DNA from: Candidatus Limnocylindria bacterium
GTDB lineage: Bacteria; Patescibacteriota; Saccharimonadia; Saccharimonadales; JAGQNK01
Direction of reading: 5' to 3'
Assembly (NCBI GenBank): GCA_035489815.1
Contig: DATHJH010000032.1
Span: forward strand, 32,301-96,300
DNA: 64,000 nt
The position numbers and the translations under genes were made by a program. Numbering within the stretch: position 1 is the stretch's first letter; each line of letters opens with the position of its first letter. A model generated the notes under the pieces. It did not search any database, was not told the origin of the DNA, and saw only the letters and a program-made list of their open reading frames with translations. Positions 3,478-62,497 of this stretch are shown one piece after another.

Positions 3478-3580
3478 GCTGAGTGCTGCCGTGGCCCATC
3501 CTGAGGGGTCAGCAAGCGCCTCGGCGGCCAAAGGCCGTCCGTAAAAGCGCTCCTCAGGATGGGCCACGGCAGCACTCAGC
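3478..3580 (+). repeat. family-1 nested hairpin element, copy A (subtype 1a)
   Basis: Perfect 29-nt arms at 3478-3506 and 3552-3580 enclose the core GGTCAGCAAGCGCCTCGGCGGCCAAAGGCCGTCCGTAAAAGCGCT. Confidence 0.9.
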
Positions 3581-6050: not shown

Positions 6051-6159
6051 CCGGAACGGCTCACCCTTACGAATTCGTCAGGCTAAAGCTAACGCCATGG
6101 GCTGACCGAAGGTCACCCATAAAGTGGCCTAGAGAATTCGTAAGGGTGAGCCGTTCCGG
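6051..6159 (+). repeat. family-1 nested hairpin element, copy B (subtype 1b)
   Basis: Perfect 26-nt arms at 6051-6076 and 6134-6159. Core is GTCAGGCTAAAGCTAACGCCATGGGCTGACCGAAGGTCACCCATAAAGTGGCCTAGA. Confidence 0.9.
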
Positions 6160-10157: not shown

Positions 10158-10263
10158 CCCATCACAAATACCCTCTTATTCCGTCAGGGTCAGCAAGCGC
10201 CTCCGAGGGCCCATGGCCCGAGGTAAAAGCGCCCTAGAGGAATAAGAGGGTATTTGTGATGGG
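10158..10263 (+). repeat. family-1 nested hairpin element, copy C (subtype 1a)
   Basis: Perfect 25-nt arms at 10158-10182 and 10239-10263. Core is GTCAGGGTCAGCAAGCGCCTCCGAGGGCCCATGGCCCGAGGTAAAAGCGCCCTAGA. Confidence 0.9.
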
Positions 10264-15725: not shown

Positions 15726-15772
15726 CAGTCAAGGCTGTTAAAGCTTACGCTTTTATGCTATAATTATATTTG

Positions 15773-16318
15773 ATGGTACAAAATAAAAACTACAAGAAAC
15801 CTATACTTATCATACTTGCCGCCGTTTTGCTGGTAAGCGGCGGGGTTTTCGCATACAGAGCCTACGGCAGGGATTCAGGCCGGGACGATTGGGTGGATGG
15901 CGTAAACTACGGTCCGCCTACCGAGGAAGAAAAAGCCTCTGGTGACAAGCAGAAAGAAACCACGGACGCAGAGGAGGAGCAACAGAACGCTCCAGAACCT
16001 CCGGACCAAAATGACCCCCAGAAAAAAGCCGTGACCGTCATCATCACCGATGCCGATCAATATGATGCTATAATTGAAGTCCGATCCTTTATCTCCGACC
16101 ACTACCAAGACGGCACTTGTACGATCACCATCAAAAAAGGCAGCCAAACAGTTACCAAAAAAACGCCTGCCTACCGCGATGCCTCTACCACCATCTGCAC
16201 CAACCCGCTCATCAAACGTTCCGAGTTCCCGAGCGCCGGGGACTGGCAAGTTACAGTAGCCTACGCTTCCAAAGACGCTGCCGGCACATCGGACGCACAA
16301 ACCATTAAAATCAAGTAG
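15773..16318 (+). CDS. hypothetical membrane-anchored exported protein
   Basis: About 181 aa. N-terminal TM (PILIILAAVLLVSGGVFAY), an acidic linker, then a small beta domain. Confidence 0.6.
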   Translation: MVQNKNYKKPILIILAAVLLVSGGVFAYRAYGRDSGRDDWVDGVNYGPPTEEEKASGDKQKETTDAEEEQQNAPEPPDQNDPQKKAVTVIITDADQYDAIIEVRSFISDHYQDGTCTITIKKGSQTVTKKTPAYRDASTTICTNPLIKRSEFPSAGDWQVTVAYASKDAAGTSDAQTIKIK

Positions 16319-16321
16319 CTC

Positions 16322-18883
16322 ATGAAATACACCCTAGTCCCCCATCTCCCATACCTTGACAGGTCTGCCCTCCCAGAAGCAGTGCCAAACAGCCCGGCTG
16401 CCCTGAAACGTAGCTATGGCTACGTTTCAGGCACATCCAATCTGCCTGGCACTGCTTCTGGAAAGGCATCTAGCCGTCAGAGTATGGGAGATGGGGGACT
16501 AGGCAAACAGCAAGTAAAAAAGCGACTCGTGCCCACCATTGCTGCTGTTTTTGTCCTTGGTATCCTACTCCCGGCTGTTCTGCCCTCCCAGAACACAGAT
16601 GCGCTGAGCGGTTCGCAGTTTAATGCCGGACGAATCATCGATGATGCGGTGTTCTACAACAAAAACTCTATGTCCGCCAGCCAGATCCAAAGCTTCCTAA
16701 ACAGTAAGGTCCCGACTTGTGAAACCCACCATGCCAAATCTTCCAGCAGTAACGATTCCGGGCCGCCGTATAAATGCCTCAAGGACTATCGTCAAAATAC
16801 CGCCAACATTGCTCCGGACAGCGGCCTGTGTGGCGGCTACACCGGCAGAAGCAACGAAACAGCCGCCCAGATCATCTACCACGTCGCCCAAAGCTGCGGC
16901 ATAAGCCCTAAGGTCATACTGGTCATGCTCCAAAAAGAGCAAGGGCTGGTAACCGATACATGGCCATGGGACATTCAATACCGAAAGGCCATGGGCGCTT
17001 TCTGCCCGGACTCCGCCCCGTGCGATCCGGCTTATGCTGGATTCTTTTACCAGGTATACTACGGTGCTCATCGGTTCAAGGTCTATGCCGCCAACCCGGG
17101 TAGTTTCAACTACCGGGCCGGCCGCAATAACTCCATCCTCTGGAATCCCAAGACATCCTGCGGAAGGTCAACTGTGTACATCCAGAACCAGGCAACCGCC
17201 AGCCTCTACATTTATACCCCGTACCGCCCCAACCAGGCCGCCCTCAATAACCTGGGCGGCACCGGAGACAGCTGCAGCTCCTACGGCAATCGCAACTTCT
17301 GGGTATTCTATAACCAGTGGTTTGGCCCCACCACCGGCAGCCCCCTGTTCAAATTCAGTAATGACGCAACGGTGTATGTACTCGGCGCAAACAACAACTA
17401 CTACCGTATGGAAAATCGTGAAAAACTGGATATATACGGGTTCGGCGACACCATACATAGCGTCAAGACCGTCAGTACCAGCTATGTCTCCGGCCGGAGC
17501 TTTTCAGGCAACCTGCCGCTTATCGCCCGGTTCCAGGGAGATGAGGTCTACATGATTAGTGGCGGCCGGGCTCATCACTTTACCTCCCGGGCGCTGTTAC
17601 AGACATTTGGCTACGACATTGGCCAGGAAGCCCTGCTGCCGGCCGGCATTAAAGAATGGTACCCGGACGCCGAAGCCATGCAAACCACCGTTCGCAGCGC
17701 TAACGGCCCCGCTGTCTGGTCTGTCGAAGGCGGCAAGAAGCGGCACATCATCAATGGCGAGGCCTACCTTTCCGGCAGCCCCGCGTATGCGTCAAGGCCT
17801 GAGGTCACCTTATGGGAAGCCGTTATGGCGCCGATCGAAAACGGCCCGCCGATTCTGACGGCCAACAAGCTGTTAAAACGGACCGACCAAAACACTTACA
17901 TTTTCTGGGATGGCACCAAACGGCAGGAAATTTCTGCCAGAGTGGCCGCAGAGCTGCATCTGCCCCTCATCTATGCCACCAGAGCCTCCATACTCAACCA
18001 GTTACCCGCCGGGGGCACAGACATAGACAAGTATGTAAAAAACGGCGGCGGCGAGCTGTATGTCCTGGACTCGGGCCAAAAGTTCCTTGTGTCGCCCTCT
18101 GACCTCACCCAAATGGGACTTACCTCATCTTCATTCTCACTCGCCCCGGACGGATTCTTTGACTTTGTCCCCACTACTAAAGCTTTTAAACGGCTATTCA
18201 GAATTGGGAGCGACAGCGGCGTCTTCTTAATCAAAAGCGGGCAGCGCTATCACCTCATGAGCCCGGCCGCTGTTTCAGAAAGCGGCTTTGCACTGTCAGA
18301 CGCCATATCCCTGAACGACACATCAGCAAACCTGTTCCCTAATTCCGGAAAAAAGATTATGGCCAAGGGTACATTGTTCAGGATCGGCTCCAGGGATGAG
18401 GTGTTTGTAGTAAACACCGGCTCGTCCAGCCTGCACATTGTGTCTGCCCCTACCCTGAAGGACTACGGCCTGAAAATTGCCAGTACCTTCAGCCTCAACC
18501 CCACCCAGGCATCCGACTACCCAATGTCCGGAAAGCTCCGGCACATTGTGAAAGACGGCTCAAACAACGTCTGGCAGGTACAGAACGGCGCAGAGAAACG
18601 GCCCGTACCCACGCCCATGCAAGACCCCGGCGGCTATAACGTCATTGTTCCGGAATTAGCCGTTCTGGATACCAGCCTCTTTGGCGGATATGCCACTCAA
18701 TCAGACCTGACCAACCTCATACGCGCAGCGGGTGATGCCCGTGTATACAAGGTCGAAAACGGCAAAAAGCACTGGGTAACCAGTCGGGCCGTTTTTGACA
18801 CCAACGGGTTTTCACTCAGTAACGTCACGAACGTCTCCACAGGGTTCCTGAACAGCCTTGCCAGCGGTCCGAACATACACTAG
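16322..18883 (+). CDS. large exported cell-wall-associated protein: putative murein-hydrolase-like N-domain plus about 9 degenerate ~55-aa repeats
   Basis: 853-aa maximal ORF. A more likely start is the ATG at 16484 (MGDGGLGKQQVKKRL + TM), because codons 4-61 are the hairpin element. It carries the motif AAQIIYHVAQSCGISPKVILVMLQKEQGLV. The C-terminal repeats follow the pattern hYhh..G.+h.h.s...h...Gh. Confidence 0.7.
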   Translation: MKYTLVPHLPYLDRSALPEAVPNSPAALKRSYGYVSGTSNLPGTASGKASSRQSMGDGGLGKQQVKKRLVPTIAAVFVLGILLPAVLPSQNTDALSGSQFNAGRIIDDAVFYNKNSMSASQIQSFLNSKVPTCETHHAKSSSSNDSGPPYKCLKDYRQNTANIAPDSGLCGGYTGRSNETAAQIIYHVAQSCGISPKVILVMLQKEQGLVTDTWPWDIQYRKAMGAFCPDSAPCDPAYAGFFYQVYYGAHRFKVYAANPGSFNYRAGRNNSILWNPKTSCGRSTVYIQNQATASLYIYTPYRPNQAALNNLGGTGDSCSSYGNRNFWVFYNQWFGPTTGSPLFKFSNDATVYVLGANNNYYRMENREKLDIYGFGDTIHSVKTVSTSYVSGRSFSGNLPLIARFQGDEVYMISGGRAHHFTSRALLQTFGYDIGQEALLPAGIKEWYPDAEAMQTTVRSANGPAVWSVEGGKKRHIINGEAYLSGSPAYASRPEVTLWEAVMAPIENGPPILTANKLLKRTDQNTYIFWDGTKRQEISARVAAELHLPLIYATRASILNQLPAGGTDIDKYVKNGGGELYVLDSGQKFLVSPSDLTQMGLTSSSFSLAPDGFFDFVPTTKAFKRLFRIGSDSGVFLIKSGQRYHLMSPAAVSESGFALSDAISLNDTSANLFPNSGKKIMAKGTLFRIGSRDEVFVVNTGSSSLHIVSAPTLKDYGLKIASTFSLNPTQASDYPMSGKLRHIVKDGSNNVWQVQNGAEKRPVPTPMQDPGGYNVIVPELAVLDTSLFGGYATQSDLTNLIRAAGDARVYKVENGKKHWVTSRAVFDTNGFSLSNVTNVSTGFLNSLASGPNIH
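16333..16503. repeat. 171-nt triple-nested perfect hairpin element (E)
   Basis: Outer arms are 22/22 perfect (16333-16354 and 16482-16503). The middle stem is 14/14 (16373-16386 and 16448-16461). The inner stem is 12-13 bp (16403-16414 and 16419-16430) with loop TATG. Confidence 0.9.
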
Positions 18884-18899: not shown

Positions 18900-19006
18900 G
18901 GCCGAGTCAGCTACTTTCGTTCCTCTAGGGCGCTTTATGGGCGATCCTTACGGATCGGCCCATGGCGCTTGCTTACCCGGACGGAACGAAAATAACTGGC
19001 TCGGCC
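18900..19006 (-). repeat. family-1 nested hairpin element, copy F (subtype 1b, core on minus strand)
   Basis: 24-nt arms at 18900-18923 and 18983-19006 with 21 WC pairs. The minus-strand core is GTCCGGGTAAGCAAGCGCCATGGGCCGATCCGTAAGGATCGCCCATAAAGCGCCCTAGA. Confidence 0.9.
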
Positions 19007-19046: not shown

Positions 19047-20465
19047 ATGCTTGCTAAAACAATAATGAAGGGTCTAAATAAAAAGGGCCGCCAGGTCCAT
19101 GACCTTATAGTTGCCCTCATATCATCTAAGGTGTTTTTGGTTGGTTCTTTTGTCTGGTTTGCAGTCCAGGGCCTGTTCTTTGCCATAACCATCAGGGTGG
19201 GCTTGCCGCCGGACGAAAACTACCACCTCTCACTCATAAAGCTGTTTTCAGAACACAGTCCGTCGCCTTTCCTCGCCGATCAAGATGGCTATTTGGCACT
19301 GGGCGAGGTTGTCCACACGCCGTTTTTCCTCTACCACTACCTGATGAGTTTCCCCTATCTCCTCGTAGGCGATTCTGAGTGGGGATACGTTGTGCTCCGG
19401 CTACTCAATCTAGCGCTAGCGCTTGGTTCTATGTACCTGGTCTACCGAATTGCCGGCGAGCTCAAGGTGTCCAAACTGGTTCGTAACCTAAGCATATTCA
19501 TGCTGGTCAATACTTTGATGTTTGTATTTTTGTCTGCGGCGGTCAGCTACGACAATTTATTTATTTTCTTGTCCCTGGCAACTATTCTGTTTCTTCTGAG
19601 GCTGTTAAAGGGAGTTACCGCTTATCGGTTCCTGCTCTTTGGAGTGGCGATGGCTGCCGGTTCTTTGATAAAGGTCAACTTCTTGCCAGTGGCTTTTATT
19701 TGTCTGGCTGTTTTGATTTTCCGGTACCGCAATCGCTTTAGTACTATATGGCCGGCGCTGTCCCACAGCTTTATGGCCAGAAAACGGCTCAACAGTATAC
19801 TTGGCATCGTACTTGGCGTCCTGACCATATTGGTTATACAAAGGTACGGCTACAACGTCCTCAAATACCACACATACGCACCAAGCTGTCCTCAAGTGCA
19901 AACCTTGCAGGAATGTCGCCGTAGCCCGCTGTTTGTCAGAAACGAACACATTAGTCGTACTCCGCTTCGTGCCACTAAAGATCCTTTTGAATATGTCTAC
20001 GACTGGGTGCCGCTTATTCAGGCTAGAACCTACGGAATTTTTGCGCACAGGGAGCTCCCGGCGCTGAAACTCATACTGGCCTGGTCTCAGATACTTATAG
20101 TGCTTGGCGTCGTAGCAATTGCCCGGGTTTGGCGGCGCGAAGACAAGCTTCTGACGCTTACCCTGGGTATCAGCCTGTTTTATGTGGCCATTGTACTGCT
20201 GGAAAACTACGGCGCCTATACGTCTTCGGGCCGGTTTGGGTTTGCGCTCCATGGACGCTATTTGTTTGCTGTCTTGCCGCTCCTGTACGTCCTTGGCAAC
20301 CACTACACCCTCAAACTTCTGCGTGACAACTATACAAAAACGCTATTTCTAGCCGTCACTATTGCCGTATTTTTTGCGGCCAGCCTGCCTACCTTTATAT
20401 ATAAATCATCAGAGCTCTGGTATGCGGACCGGTTCAAGCAAACCAGGACCTACTTACTGCCGTAA
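19047..20465 (+). CDS. polytopic membrane protein, GT-C fold glycosyltransferase candidate, paralog 2
   Basis: 472 aa with more than 10 TM helices. Shares FLYHYLMSFPY and VSYDNL with the ORF at 1928-3445. Confidence 0.6.
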   Translation: MLAKTIMKGLNKKGRQVHDLIVALISSKVFLVGSFVWFAVQGLFFAITIRVGLPPDENYHLSLIKLFSEHSPSPFLADQDGYLALGEVVHTPFFLYHYLMSFPYLLVGDSEWGYVVLRLLNLALALGSMYLVYRIAGELKVSKLVRNLSIFMLVNTLMFVFLSAAVSYDNLFIFLSLATILFLLRLLKGVTAYRFLLFGVAMAAGSLIKVNFLPVAFICLAVLIFRYRNRFSTIWPALSHSFMARKRLNSILGIVLGVLTILVIQRYGYNVLKYHTYAPSCPQVQTLQECRRSPLFVRNEHISRTPLRATKDPFEYVYDWVPLIQARTYGIFAHRELPALKLILAWSQILIVLGVVAIARVWRREDKLLTLTLGISLFYVAIVLLENYGAYTSSGRFGFALHGRYLFAVLPLLYVLGNHYTLKLLRDNYTKTLFLAVTIAVFFAASLPTFIYKSSELWYADRFKQTRTYLLP

Positions 20466-24974: not shown

Positions 24975-25022
24975 AAACTGTACTTTTATTTTGTCCGGCC
25001 GGATATAAATGGAGTACAGTTT
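24975..25022. promoter_or_regulatory. imperfect 48-bp palindrome (candidate operator) upstream of the PaaX/Cas2-fold gene
   Basis: AAACTGTACT-N-GTCCGGCCGGAT-N-AGTACAGTTT. It shares its ends and its centre with the perfect palindrome at 25545-25598. Confidence 0.6.
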
Positions 25023-25033
25023 CAGAGGACATC

Positions 25034-25549
25034 ATGAAAAGAAGCAGGAGCACCAAAGATTTACCAAACTCAGCCCTGGCCTATGTACTGGAGGCCTTGA
25101 TCCCTTACTCTGATGCGAACGTAAAGCTAGCTTTCAAGCCGCACCTATTCTTTAACGACCTTGAGAACATTGCCCGGCAAAAGCAAAGCCTCAGCTACCG
25201 TCGTCAAACTTTACGGAATGCTTTTTACCACGCCAAGCGTAGTGGATTTATTGAGTTTAGTAAGTCTGGTGGCCCACGCCTTACGCGCAAAGGGGAAGCG
25301 TACTTAAAGCCCTATGAGCCAAGCAAGCTTGGCGACTCCGCACGACTCATGGTTATATTTGATATCCCGGAAGAACAGCGAGCCAAGCGTCGCTACCTAA
25401 GGCTCATACTTAGACAGTTAAAATTCAAAATGGTTCAGCAAAGTGTTTGGATAAGTAAGTACGATTGCAAAACGATTCTTCATGATGAGATCGAAGCGTA
25501 TGAGCTGCAGGCTTATGTTCAAATATACGAGTGCGTTCGATTATTATAA
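25034..25549 (+). CDS. PaaX-like / Cas2-fold domain DNA-binding protein
   Basis: 171 aa. The C-terminal RLMVIFDIPEEQRAKRRYLRLILRQLKFKMVQQSVWISKYD matches the ferredoxin-like Cas2/PaaX-middle-domain pattern. The N-terminal half is wHTH-like. Confidence 0.6.
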   Translation: MKRSRSTKDLPNSALAYVLEALIPYSDANVKLAFKPHLFFNDLENIARQKQSLSYRRQTLRNAFYHAKRSGFIEFSKSGGPRLTRKGEAYLKPYEPSKLGDSARLMVIFDIPEEQRAKRRYLRLILRQLKFKMVQQSVWISKYDCKTILHDEIEAYELQAYVQIYECVRLL

Positions 25550-25598
25550 CTGTACTCTAAAAATGTCCGGCCGGACATTTTTAGAGTACAGTTATAAG
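25545..25598. terminator. perfect 54-bp palindrome; candidate bidirectional intrinsic terminator and/or operator
   Basis: 27/27 perfect arms centred on GTCCGG|CCGGAC, flanked by A5/T5 runs. It contains the stop codon of the ORF at 25034-25549 and lies between convergent genes. Confidence 0.7.
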
Positions 25599-31681: not shown

Positions 31682-31782
31682 GCCGGCACCGACCACTCGC
31701 CCCCCTAGGGCGCTTTTACGAATTGCCTAACGGCGATTCGAGGCGCTTGCTGACCCTAGGGGGCCAAGCAGTCGGTGCCGGC
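31682..31782 (-). repeat. family-1 nested hairpin element, copy I (subtype 1a, core on minus strand)
   Basis: 26-nt arms at 31682-31707 and 31757-31782 with 22 WC pairs. The minus-strand core is GGGTCAGCAAGCGCCTCGAATCGCCGTTAGGCAATTCGTAAAAGCGCCC. Confidence 0.9.
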
Positions 31783-31796
31783 TGGCCCGTGGAGTT

Positions 31797-31960
31797 AGAA
31801 CCTGCTCATGATCTCGCTCCTGATGCCAAAACTGATCCATTTCGAGTGGCAATTCGTTCTAGTTTTCCTGCTGTACCCATAGGTACGGCAGGGGGATTAG
31901 GGCGGATTGACGCCGGAATGGGCGGCTTTGGGACAGGATTTGAGATCATGAACAGGTTCT
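31797..31960. repeat. 164-nt nested hairpin element (J)
   Basis: 19-nt arms at 31797-31815 and 31942-31960 with 18/19 paired. An inner 11-bp stem lies at 31867-31877 and 31883-31893. Confidence 0.8.
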
Positions 31961-35462: not shown

Positions 35463-37226
35463 ATGTGCGGTATCTTTGGCCACACACAACCCGGCAAGAA
35501 CCCGACCGCCTCACGGCGTGCTTTGAACACTTTAGCCCACCGCGGGCCAGACCAATGGAACGACTGGCAGGACAAGGAAGTGTATGTGGGCCACCGGCGG
35601 CTCAGCATTATCGATCTGTCTGAACATGGGCGGCAGCCTATGTCTGCCCAGGGCGTTGTTATAACGGTGAATGGGGAAATCTATAATTACAAAACCCTCA
35701 AAAAAGAACTGGGGAACAAGTACGCCTACCAAAGTGATTCTGACTCAGAAGTCCTCATCTACGGCTATCTGGAATGGGGCATGGACAAGCTTCTGGAAAA
35801 ATTAGAAGGTATGTATGCTTTTGTGCTGTACGACACCAGGCAGAGGAAACTCTTTTTGGGCCGGGACCGGGCGGGCATCAAACCCTTGTACTATTCGCAT
35901 AAGGGCGGCCAAATAGCCTGGGCCTCAGAGCTCAAAGCCCTTACCAGTTTCCATACCGAGGCAAAGCTGGAGGTTGACTCCACGGCCGTCTACGACTACC
36001 TGACCTACCGGTACATCCCCACCCCAAAAACGCTCTACAAGGACGTATACAAACTGCCGCCGGCGCAGTACCTGGAACTGGACCTGCACACGCACAAGCT
36101 CCAGAAAAAACAGTATTGGACACTCGGGCTTGTCAAAATCAACCCAACCCTGGACGAGGCCGCCGCCAAAGTCAGGGAACTGGTCGACCAAGCCGTCCAG
36201 GAACAGCTGATGAGCGACGTCCCAGTGGGCTTTTTCCTGAGCGGCGGCATGGACTCCAGCACCGTCGTAGGCATAGCCGCCCAGCACAGCAAACAGCTAA
36301 ACACCTACGCCATCGGTTTTGATATAAAAGAGCACGACGAAACCCACTTTGCCGAACTGGTAGCCAAAAAGTTTAAGACCAATCACCGGCGCAAGGTCGT
36401 GTCTGTGGGTGAGGTCAAAAAACTCTTCCCCAAAATCAAAGACTGGTACGACGAGCCTTTTGCTGACACCTCCACCTTCCCGGTTTACATAGTGTCCAAG
36501 CTCACCAAGCCCAGTTCAACAGTGGTGTTGACCGGCGACGGCGGAGACGAAGTCTTTGGCGGCTACAACTGGTACGCCGACTTCAAAAAAAATGCCCCTG
36601 GTTTTATCAAAGAGAACTACCCCGGCTCCCGACTAAAAAGAAAACTCACCCGGTCCCACCAGGCAACCATCACCAACCTGGAGTTCGCCTACTACACCAA
36701 ACTCATGGGCGGCCTGACCCGGGAAGAAAAGGCCGGCTACCGCAAACAATTCGGTATAGCTGACTCCTACGATGACTATTGGTATTTTAGAAAATTCTAC
36801 CGGCCAGAACTGCCCCTCTATACCCGCCTGCAATACCTGGACTTTCACACCTATCTGCATGACGACATCTTAACCAAAGTCGACCGGGCCAGCATGGCCG
36901 TAGCCCTGGAGTGCCGGGTACCACTGCTGTCCACCCCCCTCATCGAGTACCTGTTTTCTCTGCCGGAAAATATTCGCTATCACAACGGTGAGCTTAAGGG
37001 ACTTATGAAATACGCCTTCCACGACCTGCTGCCGGATGAAATCCTAAACCGCAAAAAAAAAGGCTTCAGCATCCCCACCGGCCGCTGGCAGCCAAACCTG
37101 ATGGAGCGGGACACCACCGTACCAGAGTTCATCCTCAAAAAGTTTTTCAATAATACCACGGGTCGGTCCAAAACGGCTGCCCCTTCACAGCACAAAAGGC
37201 TTCAGCATAGCCGGCGTAATTTTTGA
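35463..37226 (+). CDS. asnB: asparagine synthase (glutamine-hydrolysing) family amidotransferase (WbpS-like context)
   Basis: 587 aa. MCGIFG N-terminal nucleophile, PP-loop FLSGGMDSS. The last ~20 codons overlap hairpin element K. Confidence 0.85.
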   Translation: MCGIFGHTQPGKNPTASRRALNTLAHRGPDQWNDWQDKEVYVGHRRLSIIDLSEHGRQPMSAQGVVITVNGEIYNYKTLKKELGNKYAYQSDSDSEVLIYGYLEWGMDKLLEKLEGMYAFVLYDTRQRKLFLGRDRAGIKPLYYSHKGGQIAWASELKALTSFHTEAKLEVDSTAVYDYLTYRYIPTPKTLYKDVYKLPPAQYLELDLHTHKLQKKQYWTLGLVKINPTLDEAAAKVRELVDQAVQEQLMSDVPVGFFLSGGMDSSTVVGIAAQHSKQLNTYAIGFDIKEHDETHFAELVAKKFKTNHRRKVVSVGEVKKLFPKIKDWYDEPFADTSTFPVYIVSKLTKPSSTVVLTGDGGDEVFGGYNWYADFKKNAPGFIKENYPGSRLKRKLTRSHQATITNLEFAYYTKLMGGLTREEKAGYRKQFGIADSYDDYWYFRKFYRPELPLYTRLQYLDFHTYLHDDILTKVDRASMAVALECRVPLLSTPLIEYLFSLPENIRYHNGELKGLMKYAFHDLLPDEILNRKKKGFSIPTGRWQPNLMERDTTVPEFILKKFFNNTTGRSKTAAPSQHKRLQHSRRNF

Positions 37227-37291
37227 CCTCGTGGCCAAAATTACCCGCGCGAAGCGGTCTTCTGGGTGGGAAGGGGCAGCTGTTTTGGACC
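37165..37291. repeat. 127-nt hairpin element (K) straddling the asnB stop codon
   Basis: 22-nt arms at 37165-37186 and 37270-37291. 21/22 are WC pairs and one is G:T. Confidence 0.8.
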
Positions 37292-42772: not shown

Positions 42773-42853
42773 TATAGACATCACACTCTGTCCTGCCACC
42801 AGAGTTGCCTGAGGGCAGGCAAGTCGGGACAGGGTCAGGGTGTGATGTCTATA
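42773..42853. repeat. 81-nt nested hairpin element (L)
   Basis: Perfect 14-nt arms at 42773-42786 and 42840-42853. Inner pairings are CTGTCC/GGACAG and CTGCC/GGCAG. Confidence 0.75.
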
Positions 42854-50011: not shown

Positions 50012-50117
50012 GCCACACATGCTACCTGCTGAATCTCTAGGCCGCTTTATAGGTGGCCTTACGGCCAGCCTATGGCGCTAGCTTTAGCCTGACGATTCAG
50101 CAGGTAGCATGTGTGGC
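50012..50117 (-). repeat. family-1 nested hairpin element, copy M (subtype 1b, core on minus strand)
   Basis: Perfect 24-nt arms at 50012-50035 and 50094-50117. The minus-strand core is GTCAGGCTAAAGCTAGCGCCATAGGCTGGCCGTAAGGCCACCTATAAAGCGGCCTAGA. Confidence 0.9.
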
Positions 50118-60036: not shown

Positions 60037-60450
60037 CTATCCGCGATATGGAGGCTTATGCTTTGGGTCCGTGTCAAGCATCTGATACCTGACTCTCAAA
60101 ACCCTGGTCCTGTCATCCTCCAGCTTGACTGGAGGATCCAGTAGAATAACAAGAATACTGGATTGTCTGGTCAAGCCAGACAATGACGAGGTTTTGAGAG
60201 TCAGGTTCTGATGATACAGCTCTTTGACGGATTTATTCGGATCAAATGCAGGCTTACTGCTTGTGCCCTTGCGGTTGGCAGTGCGGACAAGAAAGCGCTG
60301 GACTGCCTCGCGGCTACCGGGCGCAGTCTTCTTGGCGGACGGAACTTCCGGGGTAATAGTAAAAGCAGGCTTAGACCGATACGTCACCCGGATACGTTCC
60401 CCGGCCCTTGCCCGTGCAACAACCTTGTCCAGATTTGTCACACTATGCAA
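60037..60450 (-). CDS. Phd/YefM-like antitoxin ORF with an in-frame repeat-element insertion in its 3' third
   Basis: 137 aa. The N-terminus (VTNLDKVVARARAGERIRVTYRSKPAFTITP) is antitoxin-like. The codons covering 60087-60206 are the MITE-like element. The ORF ends 5 nt before the PIN gene. Confidence 0.55.
   Translation of the reverse strand: MHSVTNLDKVVARARAGERIRVTYRSKPAFTITPEVPSAKKTAPGSREAVQRFLVRTANRKGTSSKPAFDPNKSVKELYHQNLTLKTSSLSGLTRQSSILVILLDPPVKLEDDRTRVLRVRYQMLDTDPKHKPPYRG
60087..60206. mobile_element. family-2 MITE-like element, copy N
   Basis: 120 bp with perfect 17-bp terminal inverted repeats ACCTGACTCTCAAAACC / GGTTTTGAGAGTCAGGT. It is flanked directly by the 6-bp direct repeat TCTGAT (60081-60086 and 60207-60212). 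It has three internal hairpins. Confidence 0.8.
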
Positions 60451-61351: not shown

Positions 61352-62497
61352 TTACTTCACGCGCGGTGATGCTTGATCGACTTCGTCGCCAGGGATTATG
61401 GTAATAATCGGCCCCCTATGTGGCTTACCAGAAACTGCTGCGCCCTGCTGAGCCAGCCTATTCAGTTCGTCGTCTTCCGTATGGTACAGTTTATCAAATT
61501 GACTTACCAATCTTGCTCTGGAAGAATCTGTTATGCCCGAGTCAAACTCTTCCATGGGTATACTCAACTGGGATGAGAGGAATCCCCGAACTGCATTTTG
61601 TTCCATCATAGTGCGAAAGGCTCCCGCGTCAAATGCCTGAGCTGTCTCCGCGGCCTTATCGGCTGCTGCCTTGGTTAGTGGGTTGACCTGGTCTCTAATG
61701 CCTTGCTTGATGCGTAGGATTTGTGCAGGGTCAAAGCCGTTTTGAGGAGTTTCCGCTCCTTGTTCGTGTCCGTTGGGGTAGAGTTCGTTATGCGGAGTGG
61801 GGGCGTCCTCAACACGGATAACAGTTGCCCGCCCCGTACTGCCAGTTTCTTTAGGATACCCCAATTGCTCTTCGCCGTTCGTAAGCATATGCTGGCGTTC
61901 TTGGTATTCTCTCTCAACTTTTCTTATTGATTTTTGTGTTGTATGAGGATGGTCTCTAAGCGATCCATTTTCATCTCGCCACAATGATTTTCCTGTTTCA
62001 GGGTCAATGTCGTAGACACCGTGCTGATCTACTGCCTGAGTAGCGCGGAGTGTGCCCAAAGTATCGCTTCGACGGAAGGCCTTTCGAGACCTTCGCCACT
62101 CCTTCCCTGAAGACGGCCAGCGGCCCTCCTCAAGGCTGTAGTTTTTGCGCTCTCGTGCAGCAGTATTCCAGTCAGGGCCCTCATAATCCTGGGTAGTTTT
62201 CTCCGGCTGCGTCCCGGGCCTGTCTCTGAGCTGCCGGCGCCGGAGTATGGCCCGAAGCCCGGTAACGGCTGTTGCTTCACCGGCCACTACTGCCGTAGGT
62301 TCCGTAGCCACTGCTATTTTATCTTGGTCGGTCTGAGGGCCGGCGTCAGCCCCGCTCTGCTGGCGGAGTTGATCTCTCAATGCGTCTGCTTCTGGTGAAG
62401 GTGCCTTGTTACCAACGTCCCAATACTCTCCATAAGCACCCAGGTCTGGTTCTGCGGAAGTTGGACGAAGATTTTTTTCGCTTCTTCTTTCTGACAT
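61352..62497 (-). CDS. hypothetical, largely disordered charged protein
   Basis: 381-aa ORF, rich in R/E/D/Q/G. No motif recognised. Confidence 0.5.
   Translation of the reverse strand: MSERRSEKNLRPTSAEPDLGAYGEYWDVGNKAPSPEADALRDQLRQQSGADAGPQTDQDKIAVATEPTAVVAGEATAVTGLRAILRRRQLRDRPGTQPEKTTQDYEGPDWNTAARERKNYSLEEGRWPSSGKEWRRSRKAFRRSDTLGTLRATQAVDQHGVYDIDPETGKSLWRDENGSLRDHPHTTQKSIRKVEREYQERQHMLTNGEEQLGYPKETGSTGRATVIRVEDAPTPHNELYPNGHEQGAETPQNGFDPAQILRIKQGIRDQVNPLTKAAADKAAETAQAFDAGAFRTMMEQNAVRGFLSSQLSIPMEEFDSGITDSSRARLVSQFDKLYHTEDDELNRLAQQGAAVSGKPHRGPIITIIPGDEVDQASPRVK

Follow-up and report, generated by a model that had tools for sequence, protein, structure and literature searches.

A 171-nt hairpin at the start of a Saccharibacteria secreted-protein gene is probably one copy of a CTAG-bounded palindromic element that inserts in frame

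Introduction

What is a long hairpin with perfectly paired stems doing at the 5′ end of a large gene for a secreted protein? The question is raised by a 64,000-nt stretch of DNA from Candidatus Limnocylindria bacterium (Saccharimonadales in GTDB; assembly GCA_035489815.1, contig DATHJH010000032.1, positions 32,301 to 96,300), hereafter the window, in which positions 16333-16503 form a 171-nt hairpin within an open reading frame (ORF) of 853 aa. An earlier reading of the letters alone (the original prediction) proposed either a recently inserted palindromic element or a control device for a major surface protein. Here we argue that the hairpin is very probably one copy of a non-autonomous palindromic transposable element, or miniature inverted-repeat transposable element (MITE), which circulates in Saccharibacteria and inserts in frame in the manner of the Rickettsia palindromic elements (RPEs).

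Results

Structure of the hairpin and its host gene

Pairing searches and folding reproduced the architecture that had been described, with three perfect stems of 22, 14 and 13 bp separated by asymmetric internal loops. The features of the locus are:

16316..16318, + strand: stop codon TAG of the upstream 182-aa gene (15770..16318), aligned with the stop of the orthologous gene in locus L001 of the closest relative
16322..18883, + strand: host gene, maximal ORF of 853 aa, a secreted protein of unknown function widespread in Saccharibacteria
16322..16324, + strand: upstream in-frame ATG, candidate ancestral start, 3 nt past the upstream stop (MKYTL here and MGKYIL in the relative, L001 alignment)
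16334..16502, + strand (family "sense", frame 0 open): putative mobile palindromic element, 169 nt from CTAG to CTAG (blastn and nhmmer copies, alignments)
16334..16337, no strand: left CTAG, target-site copy or end of the terminal inverted repeat (8 of 8 family copies begin at CTAG)
16333..16354, no strand: outer stem, 5′ arm, 22 nt, part of the terminal inverted repeat (pairing search and fold)
16373..16386, no strand: middle stem, 5′ arm, 14 nt (pairing search)
16402..16431, no strand: inner hairpin, 13-bp stem and TATG loop at 16415-16418 (pairing search and fold)
16447..16460, no strand: middle stem, 3′ arm, 14 nt (pairing search)
16482..16503, no strand: outer stem, 3′ arm, 22 nt, holding ATG 16484 and the right CTAG (pairing search and fold)
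16484..16486, + strand: in-frame ATG within the element and inside the 22-bp outer helix, start of the 799-aa database gene call (P0001)
16499..16502, no strand: right CTAG, duplicated target or end of the terminal inverted repeat (family alignment)

The inner arms (16402-16414 and 16419-16431) pair without mismatch, the outer arms can be extended to 28 nt at 93% complementarity, and the halves of the palindrome are non-identical, differing by about 14 substitutions and 2 indels concentrated in the junctions. As + strand RNA the hairpin folds at −119.6 kcal/mol, compared to −55.3 ± 4.1 kcal/mol for shuffled sequences (z = −15.9; 0 of 200 shuffles as stable), and the − strand is more stable still (−139.8 kcal/mol). 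Neither the outer arm nor the junctions, middle stem or inner stem occur a second time within the window, and no promoter- or terminator-like site was found in 16100-16700. A search of the hairpin against Rfam gave no match at gathering score, the E-value mode returning only generic long-hairpin miRNA-precursor models far below threshold.

The hairpin starts 15 nt downstream of the stop codon of the upstream gene, in a window whose gene content is that of a cell-envelope polysaccharide locus. The maximal ORF passes through it without a stop, as had been noted, and ATG 16484, where the database gene call begins, lies inside the 3′ outer arm. All host-gene homologs that bear a name belong to Candidatus Saccharibacteria or Saccharimonadales.

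The closest relative lacks the hairpin at the orthologous site

Among the listed homologs, the closest relative encodes a protein with 81% amino-acid identity (P0002), at loci L001 and L002. The same two genes adjoin there, the upstream stop lying 5 nt before the first in-frame ATG and 35 nt before the called start. A comparison of orthologous loci for presence or absence of the 171-nt block, which the original prediction had proposed, found no hairpin at this site in either locus:

relative: TTAG-TTACT-ATG GGT AAA TAT ATA CTA GGT AAA AAA CAG ATG AAA AAG CGC
window: GTAG-CTC-ATG AAA TAC ACC CTAG-(161 nt)-CTAG GC AAA CAG CAA GTA AAA AAG CGA

The empty site (ATATA-CTAG-GTAAAAAACAG) has one CTAG and the filled site (ACACC-CTAG-(161 nt)-CTAG-GCAAACAG) has two, with a net gain of 165 nt, i.e., 55 codons. 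Since the hairpin is missing from the relative and a single CTAG stands in its place, we infer a lineage-specific insertion.

The host protein family points the same way. The 120 listed homologs are mostly 760-850 aa long, with a minority shorter or up to ~1000 aa, and the best of them cover ~92% of the 853-aa query; the top 40 begin with ordinary signal peptides, after which comes a conserved A-LSGS motif. The N-terminal 54 aa of the long ORF were found in 0 of the 120. These lengths and coverages, together with signal-peptide N-termini that lack the extra residues, place the 54 hairpin-encoded residues outside the protein family.

Copies of the hairpin form a dispersed family bounded by CTAG

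Searching 1.84 billion representative proteins with the hairpin-encoded peptide (phmmer) revealed a block of ~57 aa in five unrelated predicted proteins, at identities of 70%, 72%, 47%, 65% and 48% (E from 7e-17 to 7e-5). The loci of these proteins hold DNA copies that are 72-89% identical by blastn, over the full 171 nt in intact ones. Eight distinct copies lie at unrelated loci, and the 64-kb window itself holds only one:

L098:6119-6289: copy, 89% identity
L096:6147-6319: copy, 88% identity
L096:544-715, − strand: intergenic copy, 73% identity
L100:5584-5724: truncated copy, 86% identity
L100:5012-5163: copy with an apical deletion, 75% identity
L095:2126-2294: copy, 72% identity
L102:1723-1891: copy, 72% identity
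L085:3571-3739: copy in a metagenome-assembled genome (MAG) labelled Candidatus Saccharibacteria (fold scan; nhmmer E = 5e-19)

A fold scan covering other Saccharibacteria loci had already turned up the L085 copy independently, and an nhmmer profile of the family built without this copy matches it at the E-value listed. In the multiple alignment, similarity stops at CTAG on either side in 8 of 8 copies and the flanks are unrelated; the element ends read CTAGTCCCCCAYC.... In all eight copies the arms equivalent to the perfect 22-bp repeat of the window pair with each other, and the presence of the same arms at unrelated loci indicates that these arms travel with the element. The intergenic copy lies between two convergent genes, its terminal CTAGs overlapping both stop codons, and the truncated copy in L100 begins at a CTAG containing the stop of the preceding ORF. 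An element of 169 nt, with terminal inverted repeats, CTAG flanks, dispersed copies, a filled/empty polymorphism and no transposase gene, has the properties of a MITE; here, nearly the whole length is one imperfect inverted repeat. Absence at the orthologous site and a dispersed, CTAG-bounded family together bear out the first proposal of the original prediction, that of a recently inserted palindromic element.

Three weak peptide hits (P0153, P0157 and P0160) are repeat-rich proteins with many short matching stretches (6-29) and were not counted as copies. No match to the element was found in viral contigs. Scanning a collection of metagenome contigs, which does not include the window's own contig, with a 20-mer from the middle stem returned only 14 single-arm chance matches; the middle stem is among the more variable parts of the element. 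CTAG is itself rare in the whole window (65 observed vs. 248 expected from base composition, a four-fold under-representation), so that target sites for the element are scarce, and several of these CTAGs coincide with stop codons or with a TATACTAG motif.

The element extends reading frames rather than breaking them

Seven copies have CTAG-to-CTAG lengths that, less 4, come to 165, 165, 168, 147, 165, 165 and 165 nt. Six of them lie inside called ORFs, five of these with a net size of 165 nt. Overall, the net length is a multiple of 3 in seven of the eight copies, the 168- and 147-nt variants carrying indels, while the intergenic copy (L096:544) has a net length of 167 nt and contains stops. 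Read in the sense orientation, frame 0 (CTA GTC ...) is stop-free in every in-ORF copy and is the element's single open frame, encoding a 55-aa peptide rich in Pro, Ser and Gly; the reverse orientation has a conserved TAG. A stop-free sense frame and a net size divisible by three mean that the element lengthens its host ORF rather than breaking it.

A TsaE protein illustrates this at the protein level. The protein (P0156) is 202 aa long, the Pfam TsaE model covers its residues 8-113, and alignment shows a 55-aa block (LAPHPPHPNES...GMGDGAL) placed between collinear conserved segments of homologs of 133-147 aa. The 79 listed TsaE homologs measure 120-178 aa, and the block occurs in 0 of them. 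The L085 copy, found without a peptide search, likewise lies in frame, within a 184-aa ORF. Conservation of the 171 nt at the protein level in homologs would, by the original prediction, have counted against it; orthologs lack the block, which is conserved as an in-frame insert in non-homologous proteins. With six of eight copies inside called proteins, such elements inflate and distort protein predictions in metagenome bins from the candidate phyla radiation (CPR).

The start of the host gene

The original prediction regarded ATG 16484 as the more plausible start codon. Its burial in the helix stands, but its preference as a start is uncertain, and alignment with the relative and the open frame favour ATG 16322. 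A start at ATG 16484, the choice of the gene caller, would yield a textbook signal-peptide n-region (MGDGGLGKQQVKKR), and a Met occupies this position in five of eight family copies; no Shine-Dalgarno sequence precedes it. On the other side, the relative has an in-frame ATG corresponding to ATG 16322, its called start ATG corresponds to GTA in the window, and five of the seven nucleotide differences from the relative between ATG 16322 and the KKR codons fall at third codon positions (binomial p ~ 0.045). In addition, the element occupies the sole combination of orientation and frame (one of six) that keeps the host ORF open. These sequence features tip the balance somewhat towards translation that starts at ATG 16322 and reads through the element.

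Initiation at ATG 16322 would be either coupled to the upstream stop 3 nt away or leaderless; less likely, ribosomes would initiate at ATG 16484 within the 3′ arm. The long ORF may thus well be the one translated. Its 55 extra residues, rich in Pro, Ser, Gly and Ala, would sit in the n-region of a signal peptide cleaved before LSGS; an insert confined to the cleaved part would leave the mature protein as it was. So stable an mRNA hairpin may also, as a side effect, slow ribosomes, lower translation or attract RNase III.

The insertion may instead have separated a promoter from its gene without entering the coding sequence. The CTAG of the relative is the end of a TATACTAG motif, and the same motif is found in the window 7-10 nt before other, apparently leaderless genes. 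TATACT/TATAAT-like boxes lie 7-10 nt before the ATGs at 19047, 28708, 48936, 5038, 11321 and 60471, and on the − strand at 62497 and 3445. The genes concerned have no Shine-Dalgarno sequence and the box is often in the form TATACTAG, while other genes of the window have AAGGAG or GGAGG. This spacing in genes without a Shine-Dalgarno sequence suggests leaderless or near-leaderless mRNAs.

The arms co-evolve and the two strands fold unequally

Compensatory double changes among the eight copies affect 33 of 63 consensus pairs on the sense strand and 37 of 74 on the antisense strand, showing that the arms co-evolve. The strand antisense to the open frame is 10-38 kcal/mol more stable in 9 of 9 folded copies, with 7-13 G-U pairs per copy compared to 0-5 on the sense strand. 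The consensus structure has an energy of −118.8 kcal/mol on the antisense vs. −77.7 kcal/mol on the sense strand (covariation term −7.8 vs. −2.6), and 35 pair positions carry G-U in some copies and G-C or A-U in others. A strand-neutral comparison of the arms counted 68 differences of the type C·A on sense (G-U on antisense) vs. 16 of the opposite type; the antisense strand thus folds better because arm mismatches are C·A on the sense strand. The direction is identical in every copy, including the most divergent ones, but these counts are not independent, since the copies are related and part of the asymmetry is inherited.

Three causes are possible. Selection may act on a hairpin formed by one strand, whether as single-stranded DNA (ssDNA) in the course of transposition or as an antisense RNA; it may instead favour weaker mRNA hairpins in copies that reside in ORFs and so have to be sense-oriented; or mutation may be strand-biased.

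Discussion

Identity of the element and rival explanations

The history we consider very probable begins with an element inserting at a CTAG of the secreted-protein gene, a site located either among its first codons or between its start codon and a −10-like TATACT box. This would have duplicated CTAG or its central TA. IS630 elements prefer TA within CTAG and IS5 elements prefer YTAR. Given these preferences and the CTAG/TA target, a transposase supplied in trans would probably be of the IS630/Tc1 type (TA duplication in CTAG) or the IS5 type (4-bp YTAR duplication). The structure at the start of this large secreted-protein gene would accordingly be a scar of transposition and not a regulator.

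Several points weigh against this history. Only one filled/empty pair is available for the family at the DNA level, the TsaE case being at the protein level. Within 6 kb on either side of six copies, the gene tables list no transposase Pfam family, and no single-end match to the element, such as a parent insertion sequence (IS) might give, was found in the examined loci. CTAG at both ends fits a duplicated target (CTAG or its central TA) and a terminal repeat combined with a target preference equally well, just as it fits a DDE or a single-strand HUH mechanism. The 3′ arm (TATGGG...ACTAGG) resembles TATGGGTAAATATATACTAGG of the relative, which we read as coincidence, and a plain MITE model does not predict the strong strand asymmetry, with G-U only on the antisense strand.

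That asymmetry is the starting point for an unlikely alternative, in which the antisense strand is the functional one, either as ssDNA moved by an HUH/Y1-type enzyme (IS200/IS605- or RAYT-like) or as an antisense RNA, with arms kept complementary through hairpin-templated copying or correction. Better antisense folding in all nine copies, the 68 vs. 16 arm differences, the gap in consensus energy and the 35 positions at which G-U alternates with G-C or A-U all agree with it. IS200/IS605 elements insert 3′ of a target tetranucleotide and carry short subterminal hairpins. An IS608-like insertion 3′ of a tetranucleotide would likewise give CTAG followed by an element that ends in CTAG, against one CTAG at the empty site, but short subterminal hairpins are not a whole-element palindrome, no Y1 gene was seen near any copy, and no promoter-like site for an antisense RNA was found in 16100-16700. 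The inherited share of the asymmetry makes the counts non-independent, and mRNA-weakening selection in ORF copies or mutational strand bias could produce the same pattern. We think it improbable that the active form is the antisense strand in a near-continuous helix of ~74 bp, as an ssDNA transposition intermediate or a structured RNA. If it were, Saccharibacteria genomes would host several strand-specific hairpin families, including the "family A" described below, with arms kept by hairpin-templated copying or repair, and propagation would be distinct from that of classical cut-and-paste MITEs.

A cis-regulatory device evolved for the host gene, in which the 22-bp helix sequesters ATG 16484 and translation depends on melting, RNase III or upstream ribosomes, is a more doubtful proposition still. 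The location of this ATG within a perfect helix and without a Shine-Dalgarno sequence would suit such a device, as would the replacement of the relative's start ATG by GTA, which calls for a start further upstream. There is also precedent in Neisseria, where hairpins of Correia MITEs are cut by RNase III and expression of neighbouring genes is altered (PMC2649163, PMC10969869). The structure is, however, missing from the orthologous site of the relative and from the N-termini of the top 40 homologs, and the element also sits within unrelated ORFs and at one intergenic site. Its more stable strand is antisense to the gene. Any regulatory effect would be a by-product of transposition. The control-device proposal of the original prediction is thus left unsupported by a structure that is not conserved at orthologs, has no Rfam family and no promoter or terminator signal, and recurs in unrelated genes such as tsaE; nothing found here favours a dedicated regulatory role.

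Two further explanations deserve very little credence. The outer stem could have arisen from the flank, a smaller element having inserted and its 5′ arm being an inverted duplicate of the pre-existing start region (TATGGG...ACTAGG): counted from the KKR codons, the 3′ arm GTATGGGAGATGGGGGACTAGG and CTATGGGTAAATATATACTAGG of the relative stand at an equal offset and agree at 12 of 21 positions. In the middle of this putatively homologous stretch, though, 0 of 9 nt match, the left flank ATGAAATACACCCTAG aligns better with ATGGGTAAATATATACTAG of the relative, and a flank-copy origin is contradicted by the same outer arms at unrelated loci (e.g., CTAGTCCCCCACCACCCACAC / GTGTGGGTGGTGGGGGACTAG in L098). 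An assembly artefact is the least credible of all. The contig is metagenomic and assemblers can create inverted chimeras, but the element is internal to a contig of ~104 kb, its palindrome is imperfect, and related copies are found in independent assemblies (ENA ERZ27268082/85, JGI 3300020027/34, Logan SRR13378641/44 and a GTDB MAG). A mobile, non-autonomous palindromic element remains the reading that we adopt.

Relation to known palindromic elements

RPEs offer the nearest parallel in behaviour. As summarised in PMC10969869, RPE-1 and related elements (Ogata et al. 2000) have many copies that are in-frame inserts in unrelated genes. Within that summary, the likeness extends to a palindromic repeat of ~150-170 bp in a small host-dependent genome, to dispersed copies that include housekeeping genes, and to a recognisable conserved peptide encoded by copies that leave the ORF open. 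The element described here differs in belonging to Saccharibacteria/CPR, another phylum, in having clear CTAG boundaries and a CTAG empty site, and in being nearly all one long hairpin; it is likened to RPEs by behaviour and not by sequence, so that the parallel is an analogy and homology is not claimed. We know of no pronounced strand asymmetry of G-U pairs in RPEs.

Other families share single traits. Correia elements (CREE/NEMIS) of Neisseria are MITEs of ~100-160 bp with long terminal inverted repeats and TA in the target, as here, and are often co-transcribed with their neighbours, the transcript hairpin being bound or cleaved by RNase III and expression altered (PMC2649163, PMC10969869); they are mostly intergenic, with an IHF site and promoter-forming ends, none of which were found for our element. 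MITEs derived from IS630/Tc1-mariner and IS5 resemble it in CTAG insertion, apparent TA/CTAG duplication, terminal inverted repeats and lack of transposase coding, but its inverted repeat spans the whole length and not 15-30 bp at the ends. Enterobacterial repetitive intergenic consensus (ERIC) sequences are imperfect palindromes of ~127 bp, transcribed with genes, whose hairpin and effect depend on orientation via one-strand G-U pairs, and PMC10969869 mentions an RNase E effect for an ERIC-type element in Yersinia. ERIC sequences are mainly intergenic, belong to another lineage and have no CTAG boundary. Strand asymmetry and CTAG boundaries would be compatible with IS200/IS605 or with repetitive extragenic palindromes and their tyrosine transposases (REP/RAYT), for which a whole-element palindrome is atypical and a Y1 gene was not seen. 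A riboswitch, thermometer or attenuator fits poorly, given the absence from the closest relative, the lack of a curated family and the lack of a terminator-like site.

The literature that could be searched yielded no paper dealing with MITEs of Saccharibacteria or Patescibacteria, and within that literature this is apparently the first MITE family of Saccharibacteria/CPR that acts like RPEs, entering genes in frame, the housekeeping gene tsaE among them. Finding such behaviour in two unrelated groups of bacteria, both reduced and host-dependent, has some evolutionary interest, and palindromic elements of this kind can serve as markers of recent mobility in very small genomes.

Other hairpins of the window and lineage

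The genome represented by the window is rich in lineage-specific palindromic insertions missing from the relative: at least 11 long hairpins occur in its 64 kb, compared to almost none in 34 kb of syntenic sequence of the relative. Besides the element at 16333-16503, the hairpins at 18901-19006, at 31682-31782 with 31797-31960, and at 37165-37291 are absent at orthologous sites of the relative, and in one converse case the relative has an element of a second type, "family A", where the window has none. Family A hairpins (~100 nt) number six in the window and have further members outside:

3478-3580, + strand: family A hairpin in the window
6051-6159, + strand: family A hairpin in the window
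10158-10263, + strand: family A hairpin in the window
18901-19006, − strand: family A hairpin in the window
31682-31782, − strand: family A hairpin in the window
50012-50117, − strand: family A hairpin in the window
L093:11620-11728: family A hairpin outside the window
L025:1065-1122: family A hairpin outside the window
L031: family A hairpin outside the window
L085:1300-1357: family A hairpin outside the window
L046:67-131: family A hairpin outside the window
L077:1989-2052: family A hairpin outside the window

Members have a core of ~45 nt, composed of GG(G/C)T(C/A/G)AGCAAGCGCC, an apical hairpin with compensatory changes and (T)AAAGCGCC(CTAGAG), and stems of 24-33 bp that are perfect within each copy and unrelated between window copies. 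They were found in four other Candidatus Saccharibacteria MAGs and match no Rfam family. Their presence or absence at orthologous sites indicates mobility, and stem perfection despite full divergence may be more novel than the 16333 element itself. That element is not a member: an nhmmer profile of 11 cores recovers the six window copies and nothing at 16333-16503 at E ≤ 1, and alignment shows no common core. As regards a flank-copy origin, family A arms, too, do not resemble the empty site.

Next to one family A element, a hairpin of 164 nt (31797-31960) forms about a dozen G-U pairs on the + strand; a TPR/TOD1 glycosyltransferase gene starts 16 nt downstream of it, at GTG 31977. In the relative (L093), where the intergenic region measures 86 nt, both this hairpin and the family A element are missing. 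Pairwise alignment of this hairpin with the 16333 element gave z = 4.3, but the family profile finds no match there, and we regard it as a different element. At 37165-37291, a 127-nt hairpin is inserted ~45 nt before the ancestral stop of an asparagine-synthase-like gene (35463..37226), which now ends within the hairpin with a new C-terminus; the relative (L093:15245-15470) has no hairpin. Two more long hairpins, at 42773-42853 (81 nt, z = −7.7) and 60087-60206 (120 nt, z = −9.9), have no copies in the window or examined loci. Unlike the other hairpins, a perfect 54-nt palindrome at 25544-25597 (TTATAACTGTACTCTAAAAATGTCCGG followed by CCGGACATTTTTAGAGTACAGTTATAA) looks ancestral, being conserved in the relative (L001:9903-9947); with a related copy at 24976-25021 it flanks a 171-aa gene (25034..25549) and is perhaps a bidirectional terminator or operator.

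Further families of hairpins of ~130-170 nt were also seen in other Candidatus Saccharibacteria MAGs (L085:2449-2628, L046:5329-5508 and L056:6553-6732). The latter two differ in their stems but have a common core (CGTATTTnnCATACGGTGAG). The phylum in general seems to carry long hairpin elements. An exonuclease-III-like ORF (L085:2628-3533, − strand) carries a Ser/Ala/Arg-rich stretch (TTAASSRPSEARGKTSSGNLANGMPRQARNDSARK) that is a candidate for a further in-frame insertion.

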